Shown piece by piece: positions 1-51,300 of a stretch of 52,495 bases of DNA. Source of the DNA: a phage. How positions within the stretch are numbered: position 1 is the first letter of the stretch; every line of letters starts with the position of its first letter. A program made the position numbers and the translations under genes. The notes beneath the pieces were generated by a model. That model did not search any database. It saw nothing but the letters and a program-made list of their open reading frames with translations, and had not been told where the DNA came from. The stretch lies in NCBI GenBank assembly GCA_028879995.1, contig GCA_028879995.1_4895.1. One strand, written 5' to 3'.

Positions 1-279
1 AAAAAAACCCGTGAGGCAACAGAAGAGCTGTTGGCCACTATGCGACGTATCCAACTGGACCCGTTGGAAGTTATGCAACGAGCTATCATCCTTGCTGAAC
101 GTGAAGACGACTATAAAGCAATGATGGATGGTGCGCTTGGTGTTATGCCGTACATGTATCCTAAGCTGAAAGAGTCCGTTGTTAAAGCTGACATCGACCA
201 GAACTTGTCTGGCAATGGCGTTAGCCTGAATATTACGATCGGTGACCAGAAAGTGGTAGACGTTACTGAGGAAGAGTAA
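1..279 (+). CDS. Probable terminase small subunit, C-terminal part (ORF open to the window edge)
   Basis: Frame 1 has no stop from nt 1; ends TAA 277-279 just before the terminase large subunit ATG; call is by position only. Confidence 0.3.
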   Translation, partial: KKTREATEELLATMRRIQLDPLEVMQRAIILAEREDDYKAMMDGALGVMPYMYPKLKESVVKADIDQNLSGNGVSLNITIGDQKVVDVTEEE

Positions 280-282
280 TAA

Positions 283-1731
283 ATGAACCTTGACTTTCAC
301 CTGCATGACAGACAAGGTGCCGCTCTACAGTCTCAGGCAACTGAGATTCTGTACGGTGGCGCTGCTGGTGGTGGTAAGTCTCACCTTATGCGTGTAATGT
401 CGATTATCATGTGCTGCATGATACCTGACTTGCAGATTTACCTTTTCCGCCGAAACTATAACGACCTTACGGCTAACCACATGGTTGGTCCCACAAGTTA
501 TCCTGCCTTGCTGGATGGTATGTGCAAAGCTGGCAAGTGCAAGATTAACTACTCGAGCAACACGATTAAATTCTGGAACGGTGCGAACATCAAACTCTGT
601 CACCTCCAGTACGAAAAAGATATTTATACCTACCAGGGTGCGGAGATTCACGTTCTGCTGATGGATGAGCTTACTCACTTCACAGAAACGATGTACCGCT
701 TCTTGCGTAACCGTGTCCGACTCGGTGCTCTCAAAGTACCTGAGAACTTTTTCCGGCCACTGCCACTCATCTTTTGTGGGTCAAACCCTGGTGGTGTTGG
801 TCATAACTGGGTTAAGCGCACTTTCGTAACTGCTGCTCCTCCGATGAAAATCGTTAAGCAGGAAAAACGCGAAGGCGGTATGGCTCGTCAGTACATTCCG
901 GCTAAGATGACTGATAACCCTACGCTGATGGAAAACGACCCTGACTACGGTGACCGTCTTGAAGGTCTTGGTGACCCGGCTCTTGTTGCTGCGATGAAAG
1001 AGGGTGACTGGGATATTGTTGCTGGTGGTGCGCTTGACGACGTATGGTCAACCAAGTGTATTCTGCCGCGTATGCGTATTCCGAAAGGCTGGACTATCGA
1101 ACGTTCTCTTGACTGGGGTTCTACTCACCCGTTCTCTGTTGGTATCTGGGCTATCGCAAATGGTGCCTCGCTTACAGACGACGAAGGCAATGAGTACTTT
1201 ATTCCGCGTGGTTCAATTATACGTATAGCTGAATGGTATGGGTGCTCTGAAAAAGAAGCTAACAGGGGTATTAAGCTATCTGCTGCCGAAGTCGCTCAAG
1301 GTGTTCTTCGCCTACAGGAAAATCTGCAGGCTGGTGGCTGGATTCAAAGTAACGTTAATCCTGGTCCGGCGGATAGTCAGATTTATGCGTGCAAGGAAAA
1401 AGACGTTGAGACTATCGCGAAGAAAATGGAAGACGAAGGCGTAACCTGGGTCAAGGCCGACAAGTCACAAGGTTCGAGAATAAATGGCTTAGAGCTATTC
1501 CGTCAGCTTCTGAAAAATGTTAAGATGGACGAAACGGAAAAGCCGGGCATTTATTTCATGGAAAACTGTCCAGCAGCCATAAACACGTTGCCGGTTCTGC
1601 CGCGTGACAAGAACAACACGGAAGATGTCGACACGAACTCTGAAGACCACGTATACGATGATTGTCGTTACATGGTGTTGCGTGGCATCAACCGTTATAC
1701 TACCAAGCTCAAAATAAATATGGGACGGTAA
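283..1731 (+). CDS. terL: Terminase large subunit
   Basis: Walker A GGAAGGGKSH, Walker B-like HVLLMDELTHF, acidic C-terminal nuclease-like region; 482 aa; directly precedes portal. Confidence 0.9.
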   Translation: MNLDFHLHDRQGAALQSQATEILYGGAAGGGKSHLMRVMSIIMCCMIPDLQIYLFRRNYNDLTANHMVGPTSYPALLDGMCKAGKCKINYSSNTIKFWNGANIKLCHLQYEKDIYTYQGAEIHVLLMDELTHFTETMYRFLRNRVRLGALKVPENFFRPLPLIFCGSNPGGVGHNWVKRTFVTAAPPMKIVKQEKREGGMARQYIPAKMTDNPTLMENDPDYGDRLEGLGDPALVAAMKEGDWDIVAGGALDDVWSTKCILPRMRIPKGWTIERSLDWGSTHPFSVGIWAIANGASLTDDEGNEYFIPRGSIIRIAEWYGCSEKEANRGIKLSAAEVAQGVLRLQENLQAGGWIQSNVNPGPADSQIYACKEKDVETIAKKMEDEGVTWVKADKSQGSRINGLELFRQLLKNVKMDETEKPGIYFMENCPAAINTLPVLPRDKNNTEDVDTNSEDHVYDDCRYMVLRGINRYTTKLKINMGR

Positions 1732-1732
1732 A

Positions 1733-3295
1733 ATGTCGATAACCCCAAGCAGCACGCCGAACGTCGGATACCAGCGTCCTGAGCTGACTAAGAACGCTGG
1801 TAAGTACCGAATGATTAAGGACTGCATCGAGGGTCAGGAAGCTGTTAAAGCACGCGGTGATTTCTACTTGCCCCGTCCTGACCCTACGAACTGCACAGAA
1901 GAAAACATGATGCGGTATAATTCGTACCTGCGTCGCGCTGTGTTCTACAACGTACTGCAGCGAACTCTTTCGGGTATGACTGGCCTGGTATTCCAGCAGC
2001 AGCCTGAGATGCTAATGCCTGACGATATGGAAGTGCTGAAAGTAAATATCGACGGTGCAGGCATTGGTGCTATTCAGCAAATGCGTAAGTGCTTCAAGTC
2101 TGTTCTGGCTTTTGGTCGAGCAGGTCTGTTGACTGACTTCCCTAAAGCACGTATCGGTGAGTTTGGCGAGTCCATTGGCTTTACCCGTAAAGAGCTGATG
2201 GACGGAGATGTACAGCCGACAGTAACGCTGTATATGCCATGGCAGATTATAAACTGGCGAGAAGAGTATCGCAACGGTAAAGTGATGCTCACTCAAGTTG
2301 TCATTTGCGAACAGATACCGGGTGTTACTGATGGCTTTCAGCAAGACTACACACCCGTGTGGCGTCACCTTTACCTGGATGAAGAAGGCAATTGCAACCA
2401 GTCTTTGTGGGTCAATAAGGGCGACAAGAACGCGCAGAACGTCTCCGGTGGTGCGTTGTATGTCACGCAAGAAAATGTTGTCTTACGCGACTCCAATGGC
2501 TTACCGTTGAAGTTTATTCCGTTCCAGTTTATTGGTTCTGAAACAAACAGCGCTGAGATTGACCCTCCGCCGATGTACGACTTAGCTGTGCTTAATATTG
2601 CACACTACCGTAACTCTGCTGACTACGAAGAGTCATGCTTCGTAACAGGTCAACCCACAGTATGGGCGTCTGGTCTTACTGAGGCATGGGTTGAAGATGT
2701 TCTGAAGGGTGAACTGCGACTCGGTTCGTTTGGTGGTATTCCGCTGCCGGCTAACGCCGCTGTAGGTATTATCCAGACCAACCCTAACACCCAGCCGTTT
2801 GAAGCGATGAAGCAAAAAGAAGCACAGATGATTGCAATCGGTGCTCGTCTGATTCGTGAGAATGGTAAGGTAGAACGACGCGAAGTTGAGATTAAGAATG
2901 AAGCTGCATCTGAAGCTTCGCTTATCGTAACTGTTGCGCAGAACGTTGAAGCTGCTTATCGTAAAGCAATCGAATGGTGTGGCCTGTTCTACGGACACCC
3001 TAAAGAAGAAATTACGATTAACCTCAGCTACAACTTCATCTATAGCCAGTTGACTTATCAAGAACGTCAGCAACTGGTTAACGAATGGATTGCCGGTGCT
3101 ATCACGTTTAGTGAGATGCGTAGCAATCTTAAACAGGCTGGCATTGCTAAGCTCACCGACGAAGAAGCCAAGAAGCTAATTGATGAAGAGCTGGCTGAAC
3201 GCGATGCGCGTGAGGTAGCAAAAGAAGCAGAAAAGAACGCTCAAGCAGCTAAGAACAGCGATGGGCAGGAAAATAATCCAGAAAAAACTGAATAA
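1733..3295 (+). CDS. Portal protein
   Basis: 520 aa ORF immediately after terL (2-nt gap), acidic C-terminus; position and size. Confidence 0.7.
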   Translation: MSITPSSTPNVGYQRPELTKNAGKYRMIKDCIEGQEAVKARGDFYLPRPDPTNCTEENMMRYNSYLRRAVFYNVLQRTLSGMTGLVFQQQPEMLMPDDMEVLKVNIDGAGIGAIQQMRKCFKSVLAFGRAGLLTDFPKARIGEFGESIGFTRKELMDGDVQPTVTLYMPWQIINWREEYRNGKVMLTQVVICEQIPGVTDGFQQDYTPVWRHLYLDEEGNCNQSLWVNKGDKNAQNVSGGALYVTQENVVLRDSNGLPLKFIPFQFIGSETNSAEIDPPPMYDLAVLNIAHYRNSADYEESCFVTGQPTVWASGLTEAWVEDVLKGELRLGSFGGIPLPANAAVGIIQTNPNTQPFEAMKQKEAQMIAIGARLIRENGKVERREVEIKNEAASEASLIVTVAQNVEAAYRKAIEWCGLFYGHPKEEITINLSYNFIYSQLTYQERQQLVNEWIAGAITFSEMRSNLKQAGIAKLTDEEAKKLIDEELAERDAREVAKEAEKNAQAAKNSDGQENNPEKTE

Positions 3296-3300
3296 AGCTA

Positions 3301-3329
3301 TTTACTTTCGGTTTACCTGGCTATATAAT
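3301..3329 (+). promoter_or_regulatory. sigma70-like promoter TTTACT-N17-TATAAT (scaffold/capsid operon)
   Basis: Exact -35 TTTACT, 17-nt spacer, -10 TATAAT right after the portal stop. Confidence 0.55.
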
Positions 3330-3337
3330 CCTTCATG

Positions 3338-3410
3338 TCAACCGCGCAACAGCCGGCCACGAGAGTCTGCAGGGCTCAGTGGATTTCGGATGGCTGGCTG
3401 CGCGGTTTGA
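3338..3410 (+). other. Long imperfect hairpin in the 5' leader of the scaffold/capsid transcript
   Basis: Arms tcaaCCGCGCAacagcc (3338-3354) and ggctggctGCGCGGtttga (3392-3410) pair over about 11 bp with bulges around a 35-nt loop. Confidence 0.35.
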
Positions 3411-3472
3411 CCAAAACCTGTTCAGAGCCCACTTGAGTGGATTGAGCCCCTCTCATATAGGATTGTAAAATT

Positions 3473-4186
3473 ATGGCACTTAAAACAGTTGTAACTGACC
3501 TTACCGAAGTTGATGAAGGCTTCCGTGGCCTGTATATCAAAGACGAAGCATCTGGTGCATTCCGTTTGGACGTTGAACCAGACGAAAAAACGCTGAAAGA
3601 ATTAGAAGACCTGCGCAAAGAAAAACAGCGTATGGAACAGCACACCAAAAAGCTTCTCGAAGAAAAGAAAAAAGAAGCTGAACGTGCTCGCCTGGCTGAA
3701 GAAGAACGCGCACGTCGTGAGCGTGATGTTGAATCTCTTGAGCGCTCTATCAAAGAGAAACATCAGGCTGAACTGGAACAGTATACTAATCGTCAGGCCC
3801 AGCTGCAAGCTCAGCTGGAAGCGCAAATGGTTGATAACCTGGCGCTGAACCTGGCTAACCAACTCTCTGACACCCCGGCACTTATTATGCCACACATCAA
3901 GGCCCGACTGCGCGCTCAGGAAATTGATGGTAAGTGGCGTACTACTGTCGTGGATGTTATGGGTAACCCGACTGCTACAACGCCAGATGAACTAGTGGAA
4001 CATATGCGCGCTGATAAGCAGTTTGCACCTCTTGTGCGTGGAACCAAGGCTGGCGGTGGCGGTGCCAACGGCGGCGGAGCTAATCCTGGTGGGAACGGCG
4101 GTGGCGAACAGCACACTTTCGGAGGCGGGGACGACCGCATAGCACGTGCTCGTGCTAAAATCCAAAACACACAATGGGGCAAATAA
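3473..4186 (+). CDS. Scaffolding protein
   Basis: 237 aa, highly charged coiled-coil-like E/K/R/Q-rich body, Gly-rich C-terminus; lies between portal and capsid gene. Confidence 0.6.
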   Translation: MALKTVVTDLTEVDEGFRGLYIKDEASGAFRLDVEPDEKTLKELEDLRKEKQRMEQHTKKLLEEKKKEAERARLAEEERARRERDVESLERSIKEKHQAELEQYTNRQAQLQAQLEAQMVDNLALNLANQLSDTPALIMPHIKARLRAQEIDGKWRTTVVDVMGNPTATTPDELVEHMRADKQFAPLVRGTKAGGGGANGGGANPGGNGGGEQHTFGGGDDRIARARAKIQNTQWGK

Positions 4187-4189
4187 TTT

Positions 4190-5167
4190 ATGTCACTGTA
4201 TATTTTTAACGAACAAGTACGTTCTACCGCCACCGAACTGGTTGACCAGGACGTACAGAAGTTTAACGAAGCTTCTGCAGGTACCCTTATTCTGGGTAAC
4301 CAGTACGTAATCGGTGATTACGTTGAGCAGGCAATGTGGCAGCTGGTTGACGGTATCGCTACCCGCCGTAATGCTTACGCTGGTACCAACAAAGTTGATG
4401 CGCAGACTCTGGGCCAGATTCTGGACCGCTCTGTTAAAATCGACGGCCGTGTTGGTCCTCTGAACATTACCGGTACTATGATGCGTCGCATCGGTGCAGG
4501 TGATACTGAACCAGCAGCTGTTGTTGCTGCACAGGCATCTGCTGCAATGTTCCAGGATTACCTGAACACCACTGCTGCATGTCTGGTAGCTGCTATCGGC
4601 GCAAACGCTGATGTTGTTCTGGACGTAACTTCAGGCTCCGGTGCTGCTGCAAACATCACCATGCAGAACCTGAACAAAGTCAACGCGAAGATGGGTGACC
4701 GTTCTCAGCAGATTCGTGCGTACATCATGCACTCTACTGCGTTCCACTCCCTCATCGACCAGGCTATCAACAACACAGAACACCTGTTCCAGATTGGTGA
4801 CCTGAACGTGTACAAAGACTTCCTGGGTCGTCGTTATGTCGTTTCCGACATCCCGGCTCTGGTTGATGGCGCCGGTGCTTCCGCTAAGTACCGCACTCTT
4901 GGTCTGACCCCGTCTGCTGCAATAGTTCAGGTCGGCGGCCTGTACGACATGGTTACCTCCGAGCAAACCGGTGGTGAAAACATCCTGCGTCAGATGCAGG
5001 GTGAATACGACTTCAACGTGTCGCTGAAAGGCTACAGCTGGGTCGGTCACAAAGCTGGTCAGTCTCCGACTGATGAAGACCTGGCTGCTCAGGCGTCCTG
5101 GTCTAAAGTTGCGACTTCCAACAAAGACACCGCTGGTGTTATGTTGCTGGCTAAGTCTGCAATCTAA
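4190..5167 (+). CDS. Major capsid protein
   Basis: 325 aa ORF directly after scaffold, followed by a strong intrinsic terminator (5190-5217). Confidence 0.7.
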   Translation: MSLYIFNEQVRSTATELVDQDVQKFNEASAGTLILGNQYVIGDYVEQAMWQLVDGIATRRNAYAGTNKVDAQTLGQILDRSVKIDGRVGPLNITGTMMRRIGAGDTEPAAVVAAQASAAMFQDYLNTTAACLVAAIGANADVVLDVTSGSGAAANITMQNLNKVNAKMGDRSQQIRAYIMHSTAFHSLIDQAINNTEHLFQIGDLNVYKDFLGRRYVVSDIPALVDGAGASAKYRTLGLTPSAAIVQVGGLYDMVTSEQTGGENILRQMQGEYDFNVSLKGYSWVGHKAGQSPTDEDLAAQASWSKVATSNKDTAGVMLLAKSAI

Positions 5168-44861: not shown

Positions 44862-45209
44862 TAAGCTTATTTTACAAACTGATTAATATTTAAACTATAA
44901 TTAAATATATGGGCTATAAGAGTATGATTTTATTACTCTTTTACTAACCATAATATATGGGCTCCTTATAAAAGATTAAGGGGGTAAAAAAGGGGGTACA
45001 AGTACCGGATAAAAGGGGGGATATATTTATTTATTATTATTATTATTATTATATATTATTAATTATATTAGAAGTAATAAAAACAGCTACTTAGAGGCGT
45101 CTATATGTATGATCCGGTTTATCTCTTTATTAATATCAGAACCGGATGAAAAAAATTTACGCCGGCGAAAAATAATAAAAAACCGGACTGATAAATAAAT
45201 CTGTAGACG
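44862..45209. repeat. AT-rich repeat-dense noncoding region (candidate replication origin)
   Basis: Two ATATATGGGCT copies, purine-rich AAGGGGGTA repeats (44977-45021), (TTA)n microsatellite near 45027-45051, inverted repeat ATCCGGTT/AACCGGAT (45112-45148); no ORF. Confidence 0.45.
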
Positions 45210-45238
45210 TTTACACTATAAAAAAGATGTGTTACAAT
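45210..45238 (+). promoter_or_regulatory. sigma70-like promoter TTTACA-N17-TACAAT
   Basis: Upstream of the Hjc-like resolvase gene. Confidence 0.5.
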
Positions 45239-45292
45239 ATTTATCAATGTTGCTGATTACCAAAACTTTGAATTGTATACGAGGCTGAATAA

Positions 45293-45724
45293 ATGGTTAA
45301 TATAAGACAGAAAGGACAGAACTTTGAGCGCAAAATGGCTAAGAAGTTCAATAGCTCGTTCGGATTAACTGTTGAGCGCAATCTTCAACAGTCTATTAAT
45401 GGCGGGGATGACTTGCTGGGTGTACCGTTTTTCAGTGTTGAACTGAAGAAGCACAACACCAAGTCTATCGGAACATGGTGGAGACAGTGTGCGGCGTCGG
45501 CAAAGGCTCAGAACAAGATGCCAGTGCTTATATACGAACTACCAAGAAAACAGCCTACCGTGGTGATGAATAAGGCTGATGTGATTGACTGTTTTCCAAG
45601 TGGCACGACTTTTAACGAGGCATCGAACCGCCTCTTTGTGGGTTTAGTAGAATTAACATGGGAACAATTTTGCCGGGTCTACAACTATTACGTTGCGCCC
45701 GGCACTCAATATCACGTCAATTAA
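45293..45724 (+). CDS. Hjc-like Holliday junction resolvase (PD-(D/E)xK)
   Basis: N-terminal KGQNFERKMAKKF then GGDDLLG...FSVELKK, matching archaeal Hjc-type motif order; RBS GAGG; promoter 45210-45238. Confidence 0.5.
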   Translation: MVNIRQKGQNFERKMAKKFNSSFGLTVERNLQQSINGGDDLLGVPFFSVELKKHNTKSIGTWWRQCAASAKAQNKMPVLIYELPRKQPTVVMNKADVIDCFPSGTTFNEASNRLFVGLVELTWEQFCRVYNYYVAPGTQYHVN

Positions 45725-45906
45725 TCTTGTTTCAGCTCGTCACAAATGACACGCTGATTTTTGGCAGGTATAATACCAAGATTTAGTAAGGTGTATGGAC
45801 TATCGGCGACGCATTGTTCAACGGTAGTCCATTCAGGTTTGGATTCAACAATTTCGTAATTACAGTCGTGAGCTGCAATACATGTTGACAGTATTAAGCC
45901 AATCAC
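45721..45906 (-). CDS. Hypothetical small protein
   Basis: 61 aa; GTG start overlapping upstream stop (GTGA); convergent with resolvase gene. Confidence 0.3.
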   Translation of the reverse strand: MIGLILSTCIAAHDCNYEIVESKPEWTTVEQCVADSPYTLLNLGIIPAKNQRVICDELKQD

Positions 45907-46082
45907 AAGTAATCTCCATCAACCAGAAACTCAAACAATTGGTTGTAAACGTTGCAACCTTTAGCGAAAGAGCTTTCAGCAGGTTTACCGTCGCGGACAA
46001 TCATCATATACTCACCGCCATGGATGTCCACCCAGTATTGCATGCCACCTTTGACCGGATTACGTTGCAGAAATTTAAACAT
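45903..46082 (-). CDS. Hypothetical small protein (59 aa, below the ORF-track cutoff)
   Basis: ATG 46082 with RBS AGGAGT, TAATG coupling; read by eye as MFKFLQRNPVKGG...FLVDGDYL. Confidence 0.3.
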   Translation of the reverse strand: MFKFLQRNPVKGGMQYWVDIHGGEYMMIVRDGKPAESSFAKGCNVYNQLFEFLVDGDYL

Positions 46083-46327
46083 TATTTACTCCTGATTCCA
46101 AGTTTATTCAATAACCAAATTGTCATGTCAACCCATGTTAACGGTACAGTTTTCGGGGGTTGATAATCCCAGCAGCTTGCAGTTCTTTGTATTTCTGCTT
46201 GGCGCCGCTCCGCTTCGCGTAATACCGCATCGTCAGAAGTGCCGGCAGAAAAAAGATCGGTAACACCAGATAAATCGCGTTGATTAACACGTCGAGCAAT
46301 GTCATATAAATCATCCTTAGAAAACAT
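46082..46327 (-). CDS. Hypothetical small protein
   Basis: 81 aa; ATG 46327. Confidence 0.35.
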   Translation of the reverse strand: MFSKDDLYDIARRVNQRDLSGVTDLFSAGTSDDAVLREAERRQAEIQRTASCWDYQPPKTVPLTWVDMTIWLLNKLGIRSK

Positions 46328-46503
46328 AAGCCAATACCATAAAAATTATCAGAAAGATCCCAACCAGCTTCCTCATAGCCCGACCTTCAGCATATGCAGG
46401 ATTCACAACAGAATACTCAACAACATGTTTACAGCGGACCATAAGGCCTCCACTTGTGGGTTAATTCAATCATGAGGACTTTTGGCAAATCCTCATTGTT
46501 GAA

Positions 46504-46704
46504 TCACTCCATCATTACCTGAACTATTATTATACACTCTTTATTGAAGCGGGTAAACACCTTTCCTCCATTTGTGCGTTTAGCCCCAGATTTTAGAGCT
46601 GACTGGCACCAGACATGCCACTCCTCAACTGTCAAGAATTTTTGTTCAGCTTTGGGTGGCAATCCATTGGCAAGGTCTACCGTAGTAAATTTGACTAGTG
46701 GCAT
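46504..46704 (-). CDS. Hypothetical small protein
   Basis: 66 aa; ATG 46704 overlapping upstream stop; contains a promoter-like site 46529-46557. Confidence 0.3.
   Translation of the reverse strand: MPLVKFTTVDLANGLPPKAEQKFLTVEEWHVWCQSALKSGAKRTNGGKVFTRFNKECIIIVQVMME
46529..46557 (-). promoter_or_regulatory. sigma70-like promoter (minus) TTTACC-N17-TATAAT inside small ORF 46504-46704
   Basis: Internal promoter-like site. Confidence 0.4.
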
Positions 46705-47093
46705 CACTTGACCTCAAATTTTGACTCGTCATATTCCGGATCAGTCACGTCCCGGGTAGCACAATTTTTGATTGCCTCCCAGTAACGTTGGGCATCATCA
46801 CCATCGACATAAACTGTCCAGTGGCCGTAACCACCTTCAAATCTGTCCCAGGCTTGTTCCCAGACTTTGCCATCTTCCAGCTTGTACCAAGTTGGACGAC
46901 TGTCAAACTCGCGGATTGGATGGTACCCCATCAAAGGATTCATCAGGTCAATAATGTCTTCCCGACTAATCTCCTGGTTCTCCCACAACACCGTCATGAA
47001 TTGCTCAAACTTGAAGGCGTTTGGCAGAACTTTGATGACTTCACCATCACGATATACGGTATAGGTGCCATCTTCGCATTTTGCACTGTACAT
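46704..47093 (-). CDS. Hypothetical acidic Trp-rich protein
   Basis: ATG 47093 preceded by conserved leader and hairpin cassette; 129 aa. Confidence 0.4.
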   Translation of the reverse strand: MYSAKCEDGTYTVYRDGEVIKVLPNAFKFEQFMTVLWENQEISREDIIDLMNPLMGYHPIREFDSRPTWYKLEDGKVWEQAWDRFEGGYGHWTVYVDGDDAQRYWEAIKNCATRDVTDPEYDESKFEVK

Positions 47094-47162
47094 GTTTCTC
47101 TCTCTTGTTGTGAATAATTTCAATCATGAACTATCACAATTTTGGATAGTTCATTGTTGAAA
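47094..47162 (-). promoter_or_regulatory. Conserved leader plus upstream hairpin cassette, copy A
   Basis: Perfect 8-bp hairpin GAACTATC/GATAGTTC (47128-47152) abutting a leader whose 16-nt core is identical at 47109-47124 and 47773-47788. Confidence 0.5.
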
Positions 47163-47336
47163 CTATGCTAACTTTGTTGCGATCTGAATTGTCAGCCTGA
47201 AATCTTCCATCAAGTTATCAAACTCTTTGGAACCACCAACAGCATCAGATATTTGATCTTTCACAATTTGGGCATTTGATTCCAGTAATTCAATCAGGTG
47301 CGCCAATTCGTCTTCAGTCAATTTCAGATCTTTCAT
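47163..47336 (-). CDS. Small acidic helical protein, paralog family member 3 (MKDLKLT...)
   Basis: ATG 47336 (ATGA overlap with upstream stop); 57 aa; N-terminus MKDLKLTEDE shared with two other small ORFs. Confidence 0.4.
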   Translation of the reverse strand: MKDLKLTEDELAHLIELLESNAQIVKDQISDAVGGSKEFDNLMEDFRLTIQIATKLA

Positions 47337-47591
47337 AATGCATCCACCCAAGCCATAACTTTTGCCAGTCTTACAACGTCTTCATGGTCTCGCTCGCCAT
47401 CAGAAAATTCGCTGGCGATGATACCCATAATTGACGCCAGATTCATGTTGATGATGTATGAGTGTTCCCGCACTTCATCAATTCCTGAATCTATCACCAA
47501 TTCCGCAAATTCCTGCGAACCTTCATCCCATTCAGCCCAATACTGCTCAGCATAAAAGTCCAGTTCTTTTTTTCATCTCAATATCAGTCAT
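47333..47591 (-). pseudogene. Small acidic protein gene interrupted at an A7 homopolymer (frameshift)
   Basis: ATG 47591 with RBS GAGGAG gives MTDIEMKK then stop; with A6 instead of A7 (plus 47567-47573) the frame stays open to TGA 47333-47335. Confidence 0.35.
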
Positions 47592-47596
47592 TTTGA

Positions 47597-47755
47597 TTAC
47601 TCCTCAGAACCTGAAAATTTGTCGTCAATGGCTTCAACAATATAATCAAGAGTTGAAGTGTGAGAACTATCAGAAAAAGTGCCCATCTTCTCTAACTCAA
47701 TCATCATATCCCGCAAGGCCATCGCCTGGTCTTTGGTCAGTTTGATTTTAAGCAT
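47597..47755 (-). CDS. Small acidic helical protein, paralog family member 2 (MLKIKLT...)
   Basis: ATG 47755 preceded by conserved leader/hairpin cassette; 52 aa. Confidence 0.4.
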   Translation of the reverse strand: MLKIKLTKDQAMALRDMMIELEKMGTFSDSSHTSTLDYIVEAIDDKFSGSEE

Positions 47756-47819
47756 GTTTCTCTCCTGTTGATTGTGAATAATTTCAATTGATGGCACTAC
47801 TTGAGTGCCATCTCAAAAA
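47756..47819 (-). promoter_or_regulatory. Conserved leader plus upstream hairpin cassette, copy B
   Basis: Perfect 9-bp hairpin GATGGCACT/AGTGCCATC (47790-47812) abutting the same conserved leader. Confidence 0.5.
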
Positions 47820-48386
47820 TTACTCAGTTTCTTGTTCTTCAATTTCAGGTTTTTCTTCAGTCTTAGGTTTTTCGCCTGTTACTGATTTGCCCTCAGTCAC
47901 TTTACCAGATTTTACATCATTACGGTAATAGGACATATAGGATTGGACAACACGTTTTGCCCTAATATCATCCGCTTCCATCCCACAGGCTTTCATGGCA
48001 TCAGCCAGCGCCAATTTGGAATCTTCTTTGTCCATCAAATTGTAATCCTTGAATACTGCATAGCAGGTATCTTTGGTTGACGGACCGGATGAAGTTTTGC
48101 GGGTGCCACCTGCAGATGCACGTGATGCCGCAACTTTGACCTCTTCAACTTCCAGTTGGTTAAGCTCATCAAACAAGGCTTTCACCAGCACTTCTTTTGA
48201 GTCTTTGACACTTACAGAACTTTCATCATTAAGGGACTTGATCATCTTAATGATTTGGTTATTGGCAAAGTACTGCAGGCTATCCATCTGCACTACAATA
48301 GTCCCAAGACTTTCAGTAGTCAGACCAGATTTTACAGACTCGACAGAAAAGGCGGAAGTCAGGTAAACGTAGTTAGTAGCAGTCAT
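47820..48386 (-). CDS. Hypothetical protein
   Basis: 188 aa, Lys/Glu-rich C-terminal tail; ATG 48386. Confidence 0.45.
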   Translation of the reverse strand: MTATNYVYLTSAFSVESVKSGLTTESLGTIVVQMDSLQYFANNQIIKMIKSLNDESSVSVKDSKEVLVKALFDELNQLEVEEVKVAASRASAGGTRKTSSGPSTKDTCYAVFKDYNLMDKEDSKLALADAMKACGMEADDIRAKRVVQSYMSYYRNDVKSGKVTEGKSVTGEKPKTEEKPEIEEQETE

Positions 48387-48481
48387 TTTGATGTATCCTC
48401 GTCAATAGAATTTTGGTAAGCGCCAATCCCTGGCAAGTAAGTCCAAACATGACAACTTTTGTCAAGCTGTCATGATTGAAA

Positions 48482-48661
48482 TCACTTCAATTTGTTAAGT
48501 ATTTTGGTCAATAGCTCAACTCTTTCTTCCTGGTCAGTAGGGTCAAAGTTTTCAATTGACTCCTTCCAGTCCTCCAGCAGTTCCTTTTCATTAAATATTG
48601 AAATGTCAAGAAATTCAACCAATAACTCAACTTCTTTTTTAGTCAATTTCAAATCTTTCAT
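48482..48661 (-). CDS. Small acidic helical protein, paralog family member 1 (MKDLKLT..., 59 aa, below the ORF-track cutoff)
   Basis: ATG 48661 with RBS AGAGGG; read by eye as MKDLKLTKKEVELLVEFLDISIFNEKELLEDWKESIENFDPTDQEERVELLTKILNKLK. Confidence 0.4.
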   Translation of the reverse strand: MKDLKLTKKEVELLVEFLDISIFNEKELLEDWKESIENFDPTDQEERVELLTKILNKLK

Positions 48662-48675
48662 CTTGTATGACCCTC

Positions 48676-48825
48676 TTACCCTTGATATTTGACTACTTGC
48701 GACTGGATGAAATCAACACAATCTTCCACGTCCATTGATTCAAAATCTGGAACTGGTCCATTATTAATGTTGACACACCATAGCCCTTCATTACAATCAT
48801 ACCAAAGCGTATAGTTGTCTTTCAT
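48676..48825 (-). CDS. Hypothetical small protein (MKDNYTLWYDCNEG...)
   Basis: ATG 48825 with RBS AGGAGT; 49 aa with four Cys; first gene of the leftward small-gene cluster. Confidence 0.3.
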   Translation of the reverse strand: MKDNYTLWYDCNEGLWCVNINNGPVPDFESMDVEDCVDFIQSQVVKYQG

Positions 48826-49042
48826 AATAGTTACTCCTGCTATTAGTTTCCAGGCGTGGCTACTGCTTCCAATAGCCACTAGTTGAAACTATTACCAGCG
48901 TTACTATCAACAAGAAACATGTTACCAAATTGTTAAAGAGCGGTCTGGTACTATTCGACCAGGTAAAGTTGATGTTTGCGCATCTTGACGACACGCGCCA
49001 GACAAGACGCTTGACACATTCATCATTCGTCTTGATGTAATA

Positions 49043-49071
49043 ATTATAGGCCAGTCAATCAATGTTGTACA
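49043..49071 (-). promoter_or_regulatory. sigma70-like promoter (minus) TGTACA-N17-TATAAT for the leftward small-gene cluster
   Basis: Plus-strand attata 49043-49048 and tgtaca 49066-49071. Confidence 0.45.
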
Positions 49072-49182
49072 TAAAAGAATTGCAAGTTTATGCAAGTTTT
49101 TAGAAATGATAATCACTTGCGATTGAGAGTGGTTCTCGTATGCAATTGATATAGTTTCGCATGTAATTACTCACTTCAAAAT

Positions 49183-49240
49183 GGTCGGCAGGGGTTATAA
49201 TCACATAGGGGTGCCACTTAAAGGAGCCGGCGAAATTATT
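49183..49240. repeat. Approx. 58-nt GC-rich repeat unit R1
   Basis: Shares with R2 the pattern GGT.CGGC.GGGG-TAAT-C.CA-GGGGTGC.AC.T-AGGAGCC.GC.AAATT.TTTAT. Confidence 0.5.
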
Positions 49241-49358
49241 TATAAAAATATAATTTCAATCTGAATTATAGACGCTTTGTGTTATAACGGCCGAAGTAGT
49301 TCATACGGTAATTGTATCAATCGCAATAGTTACCAAAGTAATCATTTCAATTGAAATA

Positions 49359-49416
49359 GGTGCGGCGGGGGGTAATTTCGCAGGGGTGCTACCTGCCAGG
49401 AGCCAGCAAAATTTTT
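49359..49416. repeat. Approx. 58-nt GC-rich repeat unit R2
   Basis: Second copy about 176 bp downstream of R1, same orientation. Confidence 0.5.
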
Positions 49417-49566
49417 TATTTTTTGGTATTTTCTCCTTATCAGGACCAATCATCATCAGAGTAATACGGCAGGAGCTAACCTTTTGCTTAACACAATAAT
49501 AAGTGAAGCCCCTCTAAAAATTTTTTATATTTTTCGGAAATTGTGTAGACACTCACTAAAAAGTGG

Positions 49567-49595
49567 TGTACTTTCTCTCCTCCACGCGCTATCAT
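49567..49595 (+). promoter_or_regulatory. sigma70-like promoter TGTACT-N17-TATCAT for the rightward DHFR/kinase operon
   Basis: About 40 nt upstream of the first plus-strand gene. Confidence 0.4.
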
Positions 49596-49645
49596 TAATG
49601 TGAATCATCAAACGGCCTCACGGTCTCCTACTTGTGGGTAACATT

Positions 49646-50122
49646 ATGAAAATTGTTCAATTAGAGCCATATCCGCCTCAATTGGCTATCGTTTGTAGCG
49701 AAAAAGAGCACGAAGAGCTCCAAAAACTGATGGATTTGCCTGATTTTGGCAACTGGAATGACCGGGAAACGCGTAATGCATCTACTTTTACGTTCACTCG
49801 CGTTAACTATCCGTACCTGTTAATTGTCGTCGAACTGTATCACCCGGACGACCTGAAGTACAACACCATTTCCCACGAAGGCATTCACGTAATGTCATCG
49901 CTGATGAACTATGTAGGGCTTAAATACGACCCAGAAAACGATGAATGGTACGCATATCAGCATGATTTCATCGTAAATGCCATTTGTAAGGCCCATGACG
50001 AGTATATAGAGCGTCAAAAAACGCCAAAAACTAAGCCAAAAATCGAAACAGGTAACCATCCTGCAATACTGCCACAAGACGTAATGAACTCGCTTTTGAC
50101 TGACACTACTGGGGACTTTTAG
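49646..50122 (+). CDS. Hypothetical protein with HExxH motif (possible small zinc metallopeptidase-like protein)
   Basis: ATG 49646 (tool start GTG 49634); single HEGIH motif; first gene after plus promoter 49567-49595. Confidence 0.3.
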   Translation: MKIVQLEPYPPQLAIVCSEKEHEELQKLMDLPDFGNWNDRETRNASTFTFTRVNYPYLLIVVELYHPDDLKYNTISHEGIHVMSSLMNYVGLKYDPENDEWYAYQHDFIVNAICKAHDEYIERQKTPKTKPKIETGNHPAILPQDVMNSLLTDTTGDF

Positions 50123-50797
50123 GTGATTAATATAATCTTCGCAATGGGCCAAAATGGGGAATTCGGGTTATCTCCGGAGTTTATGAAGCATCAGGTTGAC
50201 TCGTGTAAGACCATGGATGAGGTTCGTGCGCTTCCTAAATCGGGTCTCCCTTGGAAATGTCCGTCAGATATGCTCTTTTTCAGGACTATGACTAATTCAA
50301 TTGCGTCAGAACCAGGCTATAATGCGTATCAGCAACTACGTGGACAGTTCCCAAATGACCAGTTGCGAAACATGATAGCAGATGTAACTGTAAAAATGGT
50401 CGGGCATAGTGTATTGTTAGCCGGTCGTAATACGTATATGACTATGAGTCTGCCTATGTCAGCCCACAGAATACTGCTGCCTGTATCTCGTCAGATTATG
50501 GCTTCAGAAGGCTACAATAATTTGGGTGAGATGGCAGCAGACCTTGAATCCAGAGGTACTGACGTCTGGATTGTAGGCGGTGCCGAGTTGATACTTTCGG
50601 CCCTTGAAGAGCATGCAAAAGACTTACTCCGTATCGACAACATGTTTATCAGTACAATCAAGCAATCAGGTCCAAGTGATATTTTAATGGATTGTAGCAA
50701 ATTAATGATGTACATTGATAGCGACTTCACTTATAATGATGAATATGTTGATAACAAACAAGTTCTGATACAACGGTACAGGAGTTTACACAAATGA
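50123..50797 (+). CDS. Dihydrofolate reductase-like protein
   Basis: GTG 50123; DHFR-like N-terminus MINIIFAMGQNGEFG, LPWKCPSDMLFFRTMT (compare E. coli MPWNLPADLAWFKRNT), IVGGAELILSAL; contains a long insertion. Confidence 0.55.
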   Translation: MINIIFAMGQNGEFGLSPEFMKHQVDSCKTMDEVRALPKSGLPWKCPSDMLFFRTMTNSIASEPGYNAYQQLRGQFPNDQLRNMIADVTVKMVGHSVLLAGRNTYMTMSLPMSAHRILLPVSRQIMASEGYNNLGEMAADLESRGTDVWIVGGAELILSALEEHAKDLLRIDNMFISTIKQSGPSDILMDCSKLMMYIDSDFTYNDEYVDNKQVLIQRYRSLHK

Positions 50798-51300
50798 ACA
50801 TCATAATCGAGGGGCCCGACAATGCTGGTAAAAGTACACTTATTGAGTTCCTTAAATCTCATACTGGCCGCAGTGTTATTCATAATACTGTTGATAAAGA
50901 CCCCGAATCGGTCATGGCTAAACAGGCCAAAGAAAACGCGTTGGAGGGCGATTGCATTTATGACCGTAGCGCTGTTATATCTGAGTATATCTATTGCCTG
51001 GTTCTTCAACGTACGCCTGTCATCAATATTAATGTATCACATGTAGCAGATATGTGTGACAACGCCATCGTTATCTTTTGTATGCCGCCTGTTGAAAAGG
51101 TACTGGCAACTACAAAAGACGAGATGCCTGGCGTTGTGGAAAATCTTGAGGCGTTATACAATCAGTATGACAACCTCATTGACGAGCTGGTTATGATGAG
51201 TAAGCAGTTCTTCATTTACGACTGGACTGTTGAAGAAGATGGTCCTGAAGCAGCTCTCGAATACATCAACGAACGTATTAATAAGGAGTGGAACAAATGA
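50794..51300 (+). CDS. Deoxynucleoside monophosphate kinase (thymidylate-kinase-like P-loop kinase)
   Basis: N-terminal P-loop IIIEGPDNAGKSTL; 168 aa; ATGA coupling to the DHFR-like gene. Confidence 0.55.
   Translation: MNIIIEGPDNAGKSTLIEFLKSHTGRSVIHNTVDKDPESVMAKQAKENALEGDCIYDRSAVISEYIYCLVLQRTPVININVSHVADMCDNAIVIFCMPPVEKVLATTKDEMPGVVENLEALYNQYDNLIDELVMMSKQFFIYDWTVEEDGPEAALEYINERINKEWNK

Follow-up and report, generated by a model that had tools for sequence, protein, structure and literature searches.

R1 and R2 in the gp13-gp14 gap of Salmonella phage BP63: a probable packaging-site module at the edge of a long terminal repeat

The window analysed here, a stretch of 52,495 nucleotides (GCA_028879995.1, contig GCA_028879995.1_4895.1), is the genome of Salmonella phage BP63, a Rosemountvirus, with 100% identity over the studied region. 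Our subject is the 820-bp gap at 48826-49645, which is bounded by gp13, where a leftward cluster of small genes ends, and by gp14, which opens a rightward operon that continues with a DHFR-like gene, a thymidylate kinase gene and, about 3 kb further on, the gene for the terminase large subunit. No coding sequence is annotated in this gap in BP63; it holds two similar units, R1 and R2, and a degenerate third, R3, which we regard as probable copies of a packaging-site module at the junction between a long direct terminal repeat (DTR) and unique DNA. A first-pass annotation of the bare sequence had called the gap a divergent control region, a label that is reasonable given the conserved sigma-70-like promoters that face outward on either side, and had offered an origin with iterons, a pair of small RNAs or a regulatory hub as roles for the units; we found no support for reading R1 and R2 as a hub, and the other two roles are weighed below. 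The elements on which the argument turns are as follows (a slash marks a cut or boundary).

49183-49243, plus strand: R1, with block A at 49186-49197, block B at 49207-49214 and block C at 49222-49243
49226-49231: palindromic core GCC/GGC of R1, with a putative cut at 49228/49229, 176 bp inside the predicted DTR
49359-49419, plus strand: R2, with block A at 49363-49374, block B at 49382-49389 and block C at 49398-49419
49467-49535, plus strand: R3, a degenerate third unit with block A' CGGCAGGAGCTA (49467-49478) and block C' GAAGCCCCTCTAAAAATTTTTTAT, without block B
45148-45179, minus strand: left-terminus site AAAAAAATTTACGCC/GGCGAAAAATAATAAA, predicted cut at 45163/45164 (CGCC/GGCG), with the palindromic core CGCCGGCG
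45164-49404, no strand assigned: predicted BP63 DTR of 4,241 bp, present once in the collapsed assembly and expected at both virion ends

Anatomy and conservation of the units

The similarity between R1 and R2 that had been noticed at first reading is real, with identity in 46 of 63 aligned columns and an alignment score of 26 that was attained by none of 2000 shuffles, which scored -10.8 +/- 4.2. Both units are made of three common blocks, namely block A (CGGCRGGGGKTA), block B (AGGGGTGC) and block C (AGGAGCCRGCRAAATTWTTTAT), set apart by insertions or deletions (indels) of 1-2 nt, and the block C 16-mer occurs twice in the 52.5-kb window, in R1 and R2 only. R3 is the third copy in this repeat family and lies downstream of R2; the spacing of the three units is irregular (176 bp and about 104 bp). 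Conservation was followed in an alignment of 10 phages of several lineages, all of which keep R1 and R2 and, in R3, block C'.

What is invariant in that alignment is the G-run plus TA, the GTG of block B, CC/nnC at the cut and the T-tract. The distance between the outer parts is equally constrained: 34 nt separate the last G of the G-run from the R1 core in 10/10 phages, and the distance from G-run to cut in R2 is 32-33 nt in 10/10, while the sequence in between is, for R2, only about half conserved between genera. Fixed spacing combined with a variable filler looks like a bipartite protein-binding site, in which the roughly three helical turns between G-run and core would place both parts on the same face of the DNA. 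R1 is the better conserved of the two units, with CCGGCG, GGGGT and GGTG invariant in 10/10 phages and flanks at 0.9 column identity. Its core hexamer GCCGGC occurs 8 times in the window; as GCCGGCGAAA with AT-rich flanks it is found at the left end of the predicted repeat and in R1 only.

Chromosome ends mapped in relatives and the shared, putative cut-site motif

The evidence that carries our interpretation comes from relatives whose chromosome ends are known, and it is invisible from the BP63 sequence alone: in three of them the right end of the DTR has been mapped, and it falls at exactly the same base of R2 block C. The DTR of Escherichia phage vB_EcoM_fHy-Eco03 (fHy-Eco03, MW602648) was derived with PhageTerm, and the ScaI fragments of this phage fit a linear map (Viruses 2021, PMC8145870); its annotation places a 'left terminal repeat region' at 1-3699, the same 3,699 bp recur at 53313-57011, and the right end falls within the homologous gap. 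The same paper remarks that the terminal repeat is missing from the BP63 record. A second relative, vB_SalM_Sz (Sz), has a record of 57,020 bp in which bases 1-4263 are duplicated at the far end. The right boundaries of fHy-Eco03 (...TAAGCCCC/GGCAAATTTTTT) and Sz (...CAGGAGCC/AGCGGAATTTTTTT) share a single column of the 10-phage alignment, in R2 block C, which corresponds to 49404/49405 in BP63, so that R2 carries the predicted right end of the BP63 repeat after C49404, in the context GGAGCC/AGCAAAATTTTTT.

The left boundaries agree in the same manner. The records of Sz and fHy-Eco03 begin at a homologous /GGCG, which is invariant in 5 phages; the boundary reads ...ACGCT/GGCGAAAAA in Sz, ...TTGCC/GGCGCAAAA in fHy-Eco03 and ...ACGCC/GGCGAAAAA at 45163/45164 in BP63. 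For the third relative, Klebsiella phage AEV23 (a Loughboroughvirus), the published description gives only the length of the DTR, 3,915 bp. Measured on the AEV23 sequence, the distance from the left /GGCG to the R2-type GCGCC/ is exactly 3,915 bp, as against 3,740 bp for the R1 core, a comparison made with the published length already known and hence not blind. The homology of the AEV23 record (OR810919) to the rest of the lineage ends exactly at the left terminus; bases 1-1744, which abut it, contain an IS5-family transposase and a methyltransferase ('similar to Escherichia coli'), which suggests that this record is a chimeric assembly joined at the physical end and that the stretch is not phage DNA. 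The record of phage LPSEYT starts 7 nt from the R2 cut point.

Several other records were considered and set aside as evidence on the termini. The starts of PEA2-3, SD350, swi3 and the BP63 record were not counted, as they lie between 12 and about 75 nt off the left terminus, and Kpn_R1, a 3,661-bp record that might have been a DTR assembled into its own contig, was rejected as a partial genome with arbitrary ends. There is one PhageTerm 'COS' call, for vB_SenM-1, whose record begins outside the R1/R2 region. Scanning IMG/VR with gp14 yielded only 4 relatives, all matching isolate genomes, and a 15-mer scan of the same database returned 118 stretches, three of which were recognised as lineage members among the 80 listed; neither scan widened the known diversity.

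The two ends of the predicted repeat also resemble each other. The R1 and R2 sites of the 10 phages, taken from -8 to +16 relative to the cut, were the sole training set for a weight matrix, with which the window was then scanned on both strands. The training sites came first, with R1 on top, and the left terminus ranked 3rd of 104,944 positions, with its cut in register, as a minus-strand match (TTTTCGCC/GGCGTAAATTTTTTTC); in direct orientation it ranked 21st. The left end is also within the top 3-5 matches in the SOI901, ZCSE2 and Sz loci. R3 ranks 9th in BP63, third in fHy-Eco03, ZCSE2 and AEV23 and fifth in SOI901. The 4th and 5th matches in BP63, at 45682 on the minus strand (GTAGACCC/GGCAAAATTG) and at 47421 on the minus strand (TCATCGCC/AGCGAATTTTC), lie inside the predicted DTR, and Sz has both conserved at the corresponding positions; each could be a coincidental resemblance within coding sequence or a weak additional site. 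A stricter statement, that inverted sites flank the repeat, was dropped, given that the direct orientation is equal or better in ZCSE2 and SOI901. The element common to both ends is the near-palindromic core GCC/GGC with A/T-rich flanks, and because this core is palindromic it is ambiguous how the left site is oriented with respect to R1 and R2.

Physical evidence is available from phage S144, whose restriction mapping places an end within the same gap. Its authors report two new SspI bands of 5-7 kb in place of a 12.6-kb fragment and propose short terminal repeats; since heating followed by fast or slow cooling left the restriction pattern unaltered, they exclude cohesive ends. An end at R2 would give a right-terminal SspI fragment of 5,662 bp, in agreement with the reported bands, and ends at R1 or R2 would yield about 7.0 kb, or 5,487 bp.

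The packaging reading and its competitors

Taken together, homology to three mapped relatives supports both end positions in BP63, as 49404 and the left /GGCG are homologous to mapped virion termini, and comparison of the sites shows one core motif at both DTR boundaries, with the G-run at a fixed distance from the cut in the R units. We consider it likely, then, that the gap is where a long DTR meets unique DNA and that R1, R2 and R3 are copies of a packaging-site module; of the roles proposed for R1 and R2, a packaging signal is the most likely, ahead of an origin or small-RNA genes. A number of observations weigh on the other side. The BP63 ends are predictions carried over from the homologous positions in Sz, fHy-Eco03 and AEV23, and PhageTerm positions are uninformative on overhangs. 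R1 is more conserved than R2, yet no terminus is reported at R1, and cutting alone does not explain this. A long DTR predicts S144 SspI fragments of 5,662 bp and 11,050 bp, not a second band of 5-7 kb. The orientation of the left site varies, the inverted one being better in BP63 and Sz and the direct one in ZCSE2, with a tie in SOI901, and the left site is missing the G-run module, so that the two ends are not equivalent. Block A, finally, is also promoter-like, and coincides in part with PhagePromoter calls of the S144 record.

R1 might itself be a second working cut site and the R units bipartite modules recognised by a site-specific terminase, with two classes of chromosome as the result: one class would have the 4.2-kb repeat, and the other either a right end 176 bp shorter or a 176-bp R1-R2 repeat, which would account for the two 5-7 kb SspI bands in S144. 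We regard this extension as doubtful, together with its variant in which weak block A promoters would fire short transcripts into the T-tract and so mark the cut site. Transcription-dependent packaging has been proposed for T3 and T7.

The promoter-like character of block A also gives rise to the most serious competitor, which we nonetheless think improbable: R1 and R2 could be duplicated rightward sigma-70 promoters in tandem with a promoter at 49546-49574, block A being a G-rich spacer plus -10 element and blocks B and C the initial transcribed region. The early promoters A1-A3 near the left end of T7 are the model for such an arrangement. R1 indeed reads TTCAAA-15-TATAAT, with a perfect -10 at 49196-49201, and R2 reads TTGAAA-16-TAATTT; the R2 of Loughboroughvirus has GGGGGGTATAAT, and the PhagePromoter calls at 1821-1845 and 1990-2020 of the S144 record overlap block A of both units. 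Neither unit reaches the threshold of our consensus scan, however, and the -35 of the Loughboroughvirus R2 is poor; in fHy-Eco03 (GTAAACGT) and SOI901 (GTAATCGT) the -10 of R1 is lost while the G-run and the spacing are retained, and a promoter leaves unexplained both the mapped DNA end in block C and the core shared with the left terminus. Promoter and cut site are compatible functions, perhaps coupled ones. A replication origin whose iterons would be R1/R2, or else the TGCAAGT repeats of 49081-49121, beside AT-rich unwinding DNA is less probable still. It would suit an AT-rich gap with a highly conserved 96-bp block, and in T7-like phages the origin likewise lies near the early promoters. 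The cumulative GC-skew minimum at 48-50 kb, which might also be cited for an origin, cannot discriminate between the readings because gene orientation switches at the same place. Against iterons stand the small number of copies (two good and one degenerate) and their irregular spacing, the lack of a DnaA-box cluster and of an initiator gene adjoining the gap, and, once more, the coincidence with mapped DNA ends, which an origin does not explain. The further motifs of the AATCACTTCAAT type that the first-pass annotation had seen recurring in the gap are near chance level, with 75 genome-wide at up to 3 mismatches and 57 +/- 7 expected.

That R1 and R2 encode two small structured RNAs, or else RNA elements that act in cis as regulators and end at T-runs, we hold to be very unlikely. 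T-rich tracts do follow R2 and R3, and the blocks are conserved across genera; Rfam, by contrast, gave no match at the gathering score or at permissive E-values, and the minimum free energies of R1, R2 and R3 equal those of shuffles on both strands (z -0.33 to +0.33). An alignment of 8 representative relatives shows no conserved or covarying structure: the R1 consensus stem lacks covariation and is disrupted in two lineages, that of R2 reaches a folding energy of only -2.7 kcal/mol, and the two units have no common fold. No hairpin adjoins the T-runs, and a scan found no terminator-like site in R1 or R2. Small protein genes, of 27 amino acids from the ATG at 49181 and of 34 amino acids at 49360-49464, are hardly credible. 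The two peptides are partly similar in one register, and automated annotations of KE24 and vB_SenM-1 call short coding sequences here, but neither open reading frame has an upstream Shine-Dalgarno sequence, the blocks of R1 and R2 are offset by the 1-2 nt indels, the relatives differ by indels whose lengths do not divide by 3, and fHy-Eco03 and SOI901 lack the ATG of position 49181. With no conserved open reading frame in it, the gap is as devoid of convincing genes as it had first appeared.

The packaging reading that we prefer can be put as a sequence of steps. A good copy of the module would consist of a G-run followed by TAWWWT and, 32-34 bp downstream, by the near-palindromic GCC/RGC and an A/T tract. 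Cutting of the concatemer in the R2 core after C49404 would generate the right end of the virion chromosome, and cutting of the related core CGCC/GGCG at 45163/45164 the left end. The nuclease would most likely be the terminase, guided by its small subunit, for which the gene just upstream of the large subunit, gp19 in BP63, is a possible source; the S144 paper proposes the protein encoded directly upstream of the large subunit as the small subunit on the grounds of its position. The G-run would probably act as a terminase recognition element that positions the enzyme, and R1 may serve for auxiliary binding, for alternative cutting or for both. Each virion chromosome would accordingly begin at 45164, continue through the unique DNA and finish with 45164-49404 repeated, the cuts at the left core and the R2 core leaving this segment at both ends. 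The repeat of 4,241 bp would carry the RusA-like gene, the small early genes and their promoter, and it would have to be duplicated in some way; in the standard model for T7, staggered nicks at both boundaries are followed by strand-displacement synthesis. The sigma-70-like promoters at 49071-49043 (leftward) and 49546-49574 (rightward) would drive the two flanking gene sets.

Surroundings, known systems and implications

The flanks of the units and the inner side of the left terminus contain further features.

45210-45238, plus strand: sigma-70-like promoter inside the left end, TTTACA-17-TACAAT, conserved in 5 phages and assigned its putative function from sequence
49043-49071, minus strand: leftward promoter-like site, TGTACA-17-TATAAT, with 10/12 matches in the promoter scan; it faces the small-gene cluster inside the DTR
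49065-49160, no strand assigned: best-conserved block of the gap, with about 95% column identity (sliding, 10 phages including the distant fHy-Eco03 and SOI901)
49546-49574, plus strand: rightward promoter-like site, TAGACA-17-TACTTT, outside the DTR; it faces gp14 and the operon for nucleotide metabolism and packaging

Of the two outward-facing sites of the gap, the leftward one was found by the scan and the rightward one falls below its threshold. TTGTACA of the former and TAAAAAGTGGTGTACTTT of the latter are invariant in 10/10 phages. In the conserved block at 49065-49160, between the leftward promoter-like site and R1, TGCAAGTTT stands twice in tandem (49081, 49091) and ACTTGCGA, inverted, at 49114; candidate roles for the block are those of an operator, an UP-like element or a piece of the packaging or replication signal. 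The words GTAGAC, TGCAAGT and TTGTACA show no genome-wide enrichment.

Just outside the left terminus, 44980-45021 contains a cluster of G-runs (GGGGGTA twice, and GGGGGG), partly conserved in fHy-Eco03 and absent from SOI901; a run of TTA repeats follows at about 45026-45060, to which the annotations of phage birk and others give the label repeat_region. An inverted repeat of 8 bp, ATCCGGTT...AACCGGAT, lies at 45111-45147. The window exceeds the GenBank BP63 record (NC_031250) by 58 nt in this AT-rich TTA-repeat region: the end-to-start junction of that record skips window 45032-45088 and reads GGGGGT where the window has GGGGGG (at about 45020).

To the right of the gap, gp14 (window 49646-50122) has no Pfam match, and its sole PHROG match is phrog_1365, of unknown function. 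The annotation of S144 gives the homologue as a putative Ku/Gam-like DNA-end-binding protein; if gp14 had such a function, its location beside a chromosome end would make sense. The DHFR-like and thymidylate kinase genes occupy 50123-51300, on the immediate right of the gap, and the terminase large subunit gene lies at 283-1731, where T4-type terminase N-terminal models match weakly. A tRNA search found none. The gene content of the terminal-repeat region varies within the lineage: in phage birk (661-1167) and several other Rosemountviruses an additional 'anti-repressor Ant' gene separates the left terminus from the RusA-like gene, and insertions of homing or HNH endonucleases occur near the region in KE24 and LPSEYT. 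The DNA of S144 is cut by SspI and PacI only, and that of fHy-Eco03 by ScaI only, among the enzymes tried, and from this resistance to nearly all enzymes the lineage can be taken to carry a DNA modification.

The direct homologues of the BP63 arrangement are the DTRs of fHy-Eco03, Sz and AEV23, which show the same gene order, with a repeat that spans the RusA-like gene and the leftward small-gene cluster, but different lengths (3,699, 4,263 and 3,915 bp, against the 4,241 bp predicted for BP63); their reports give coordinates only. More distant systems offer partial parallels. In lambda, cos comprises the nicking site cosN and cosB with three binding repeats for the small terminase subunit, in the order R3-R2-R1, and the ends are cohesive over 12 nt without a terminal repeat. 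BP63 would share with it a cut site of partial two-fold symmetry and repeated elements on one side at a defined spacing; it differs in the terminal repeat, in the non-cohesive ends of S144 and in the absence of sequence similarity, and small-subunit binding to R1 and R2 is hypothetical. Phages of the T5/SPO1 type likewise have an exact DTR of several kilobases that carries small early (host-takeover-like) genes at both ends, although they are unrelated phages and their repeats measure 10-13 kb. The concatemer junction of T7 and T3, with a pacB binding site, pacC cleavage sites and Watson-type duplication of the terminal repeat, provides another comparison: there too the DTR is non-permuted and exact, the cuts at both boundaries are sequence-specific, and early promoters and short repeats lie nearby. 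The T7/T3 repeat is, however, 160-230 bp long and its processing depends on the phage RNA polymerase, whereas the repeat here is about 4.2 kb and there is no sequence similarity. Unlike T7 and T3, the present lineage is without a phage RNA polymerase, as stated in the S144 paper. The terminase reported to be closest outside the lineage is that of phage 9g, a Nonagvirus, whose physical end was located from read starts in a 473-bp untranslated region with two divergent promoters (PMC7432712, PMC4276943); the 9g RefSeq record is rearranged to start inside the DNA polymerase gene, and its end sequence was left out of the comparison.

The long repeat of this lineage had already been published; what appears new is the anatomy of the site, as no description of the R1/R2/R3 units, the shared GCC/RGC core or the fixed G-run spacing was found in the papers that could be searched. 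With it, BP63 and, by extension, most of the deposited Rosemountvirus and Loughboroughvirus genomes would gain their probable true chromosome ends, most of these records being collapsed, arbitrarily rotated or labelled circular and one being chimeric at the terminus. The ends could be predicted without reads by a simple rule, namely /GGCG on the left and, on the right, a G-run, 32-34 bp and GCC/RGC followed by a T-tract, which reproduces the published repeat length of AEV23 exactly. This matters in that several phages of the lineage are in development against Salmonella, E. coli and Klebsiella, and in that the small early genes would be present in two copies per virion. The core, the G-run and their spacing would, moreover, make a compact substrate for studying how a long exact DTR is cut and duplicated, a process that is poorly understood outside T7.

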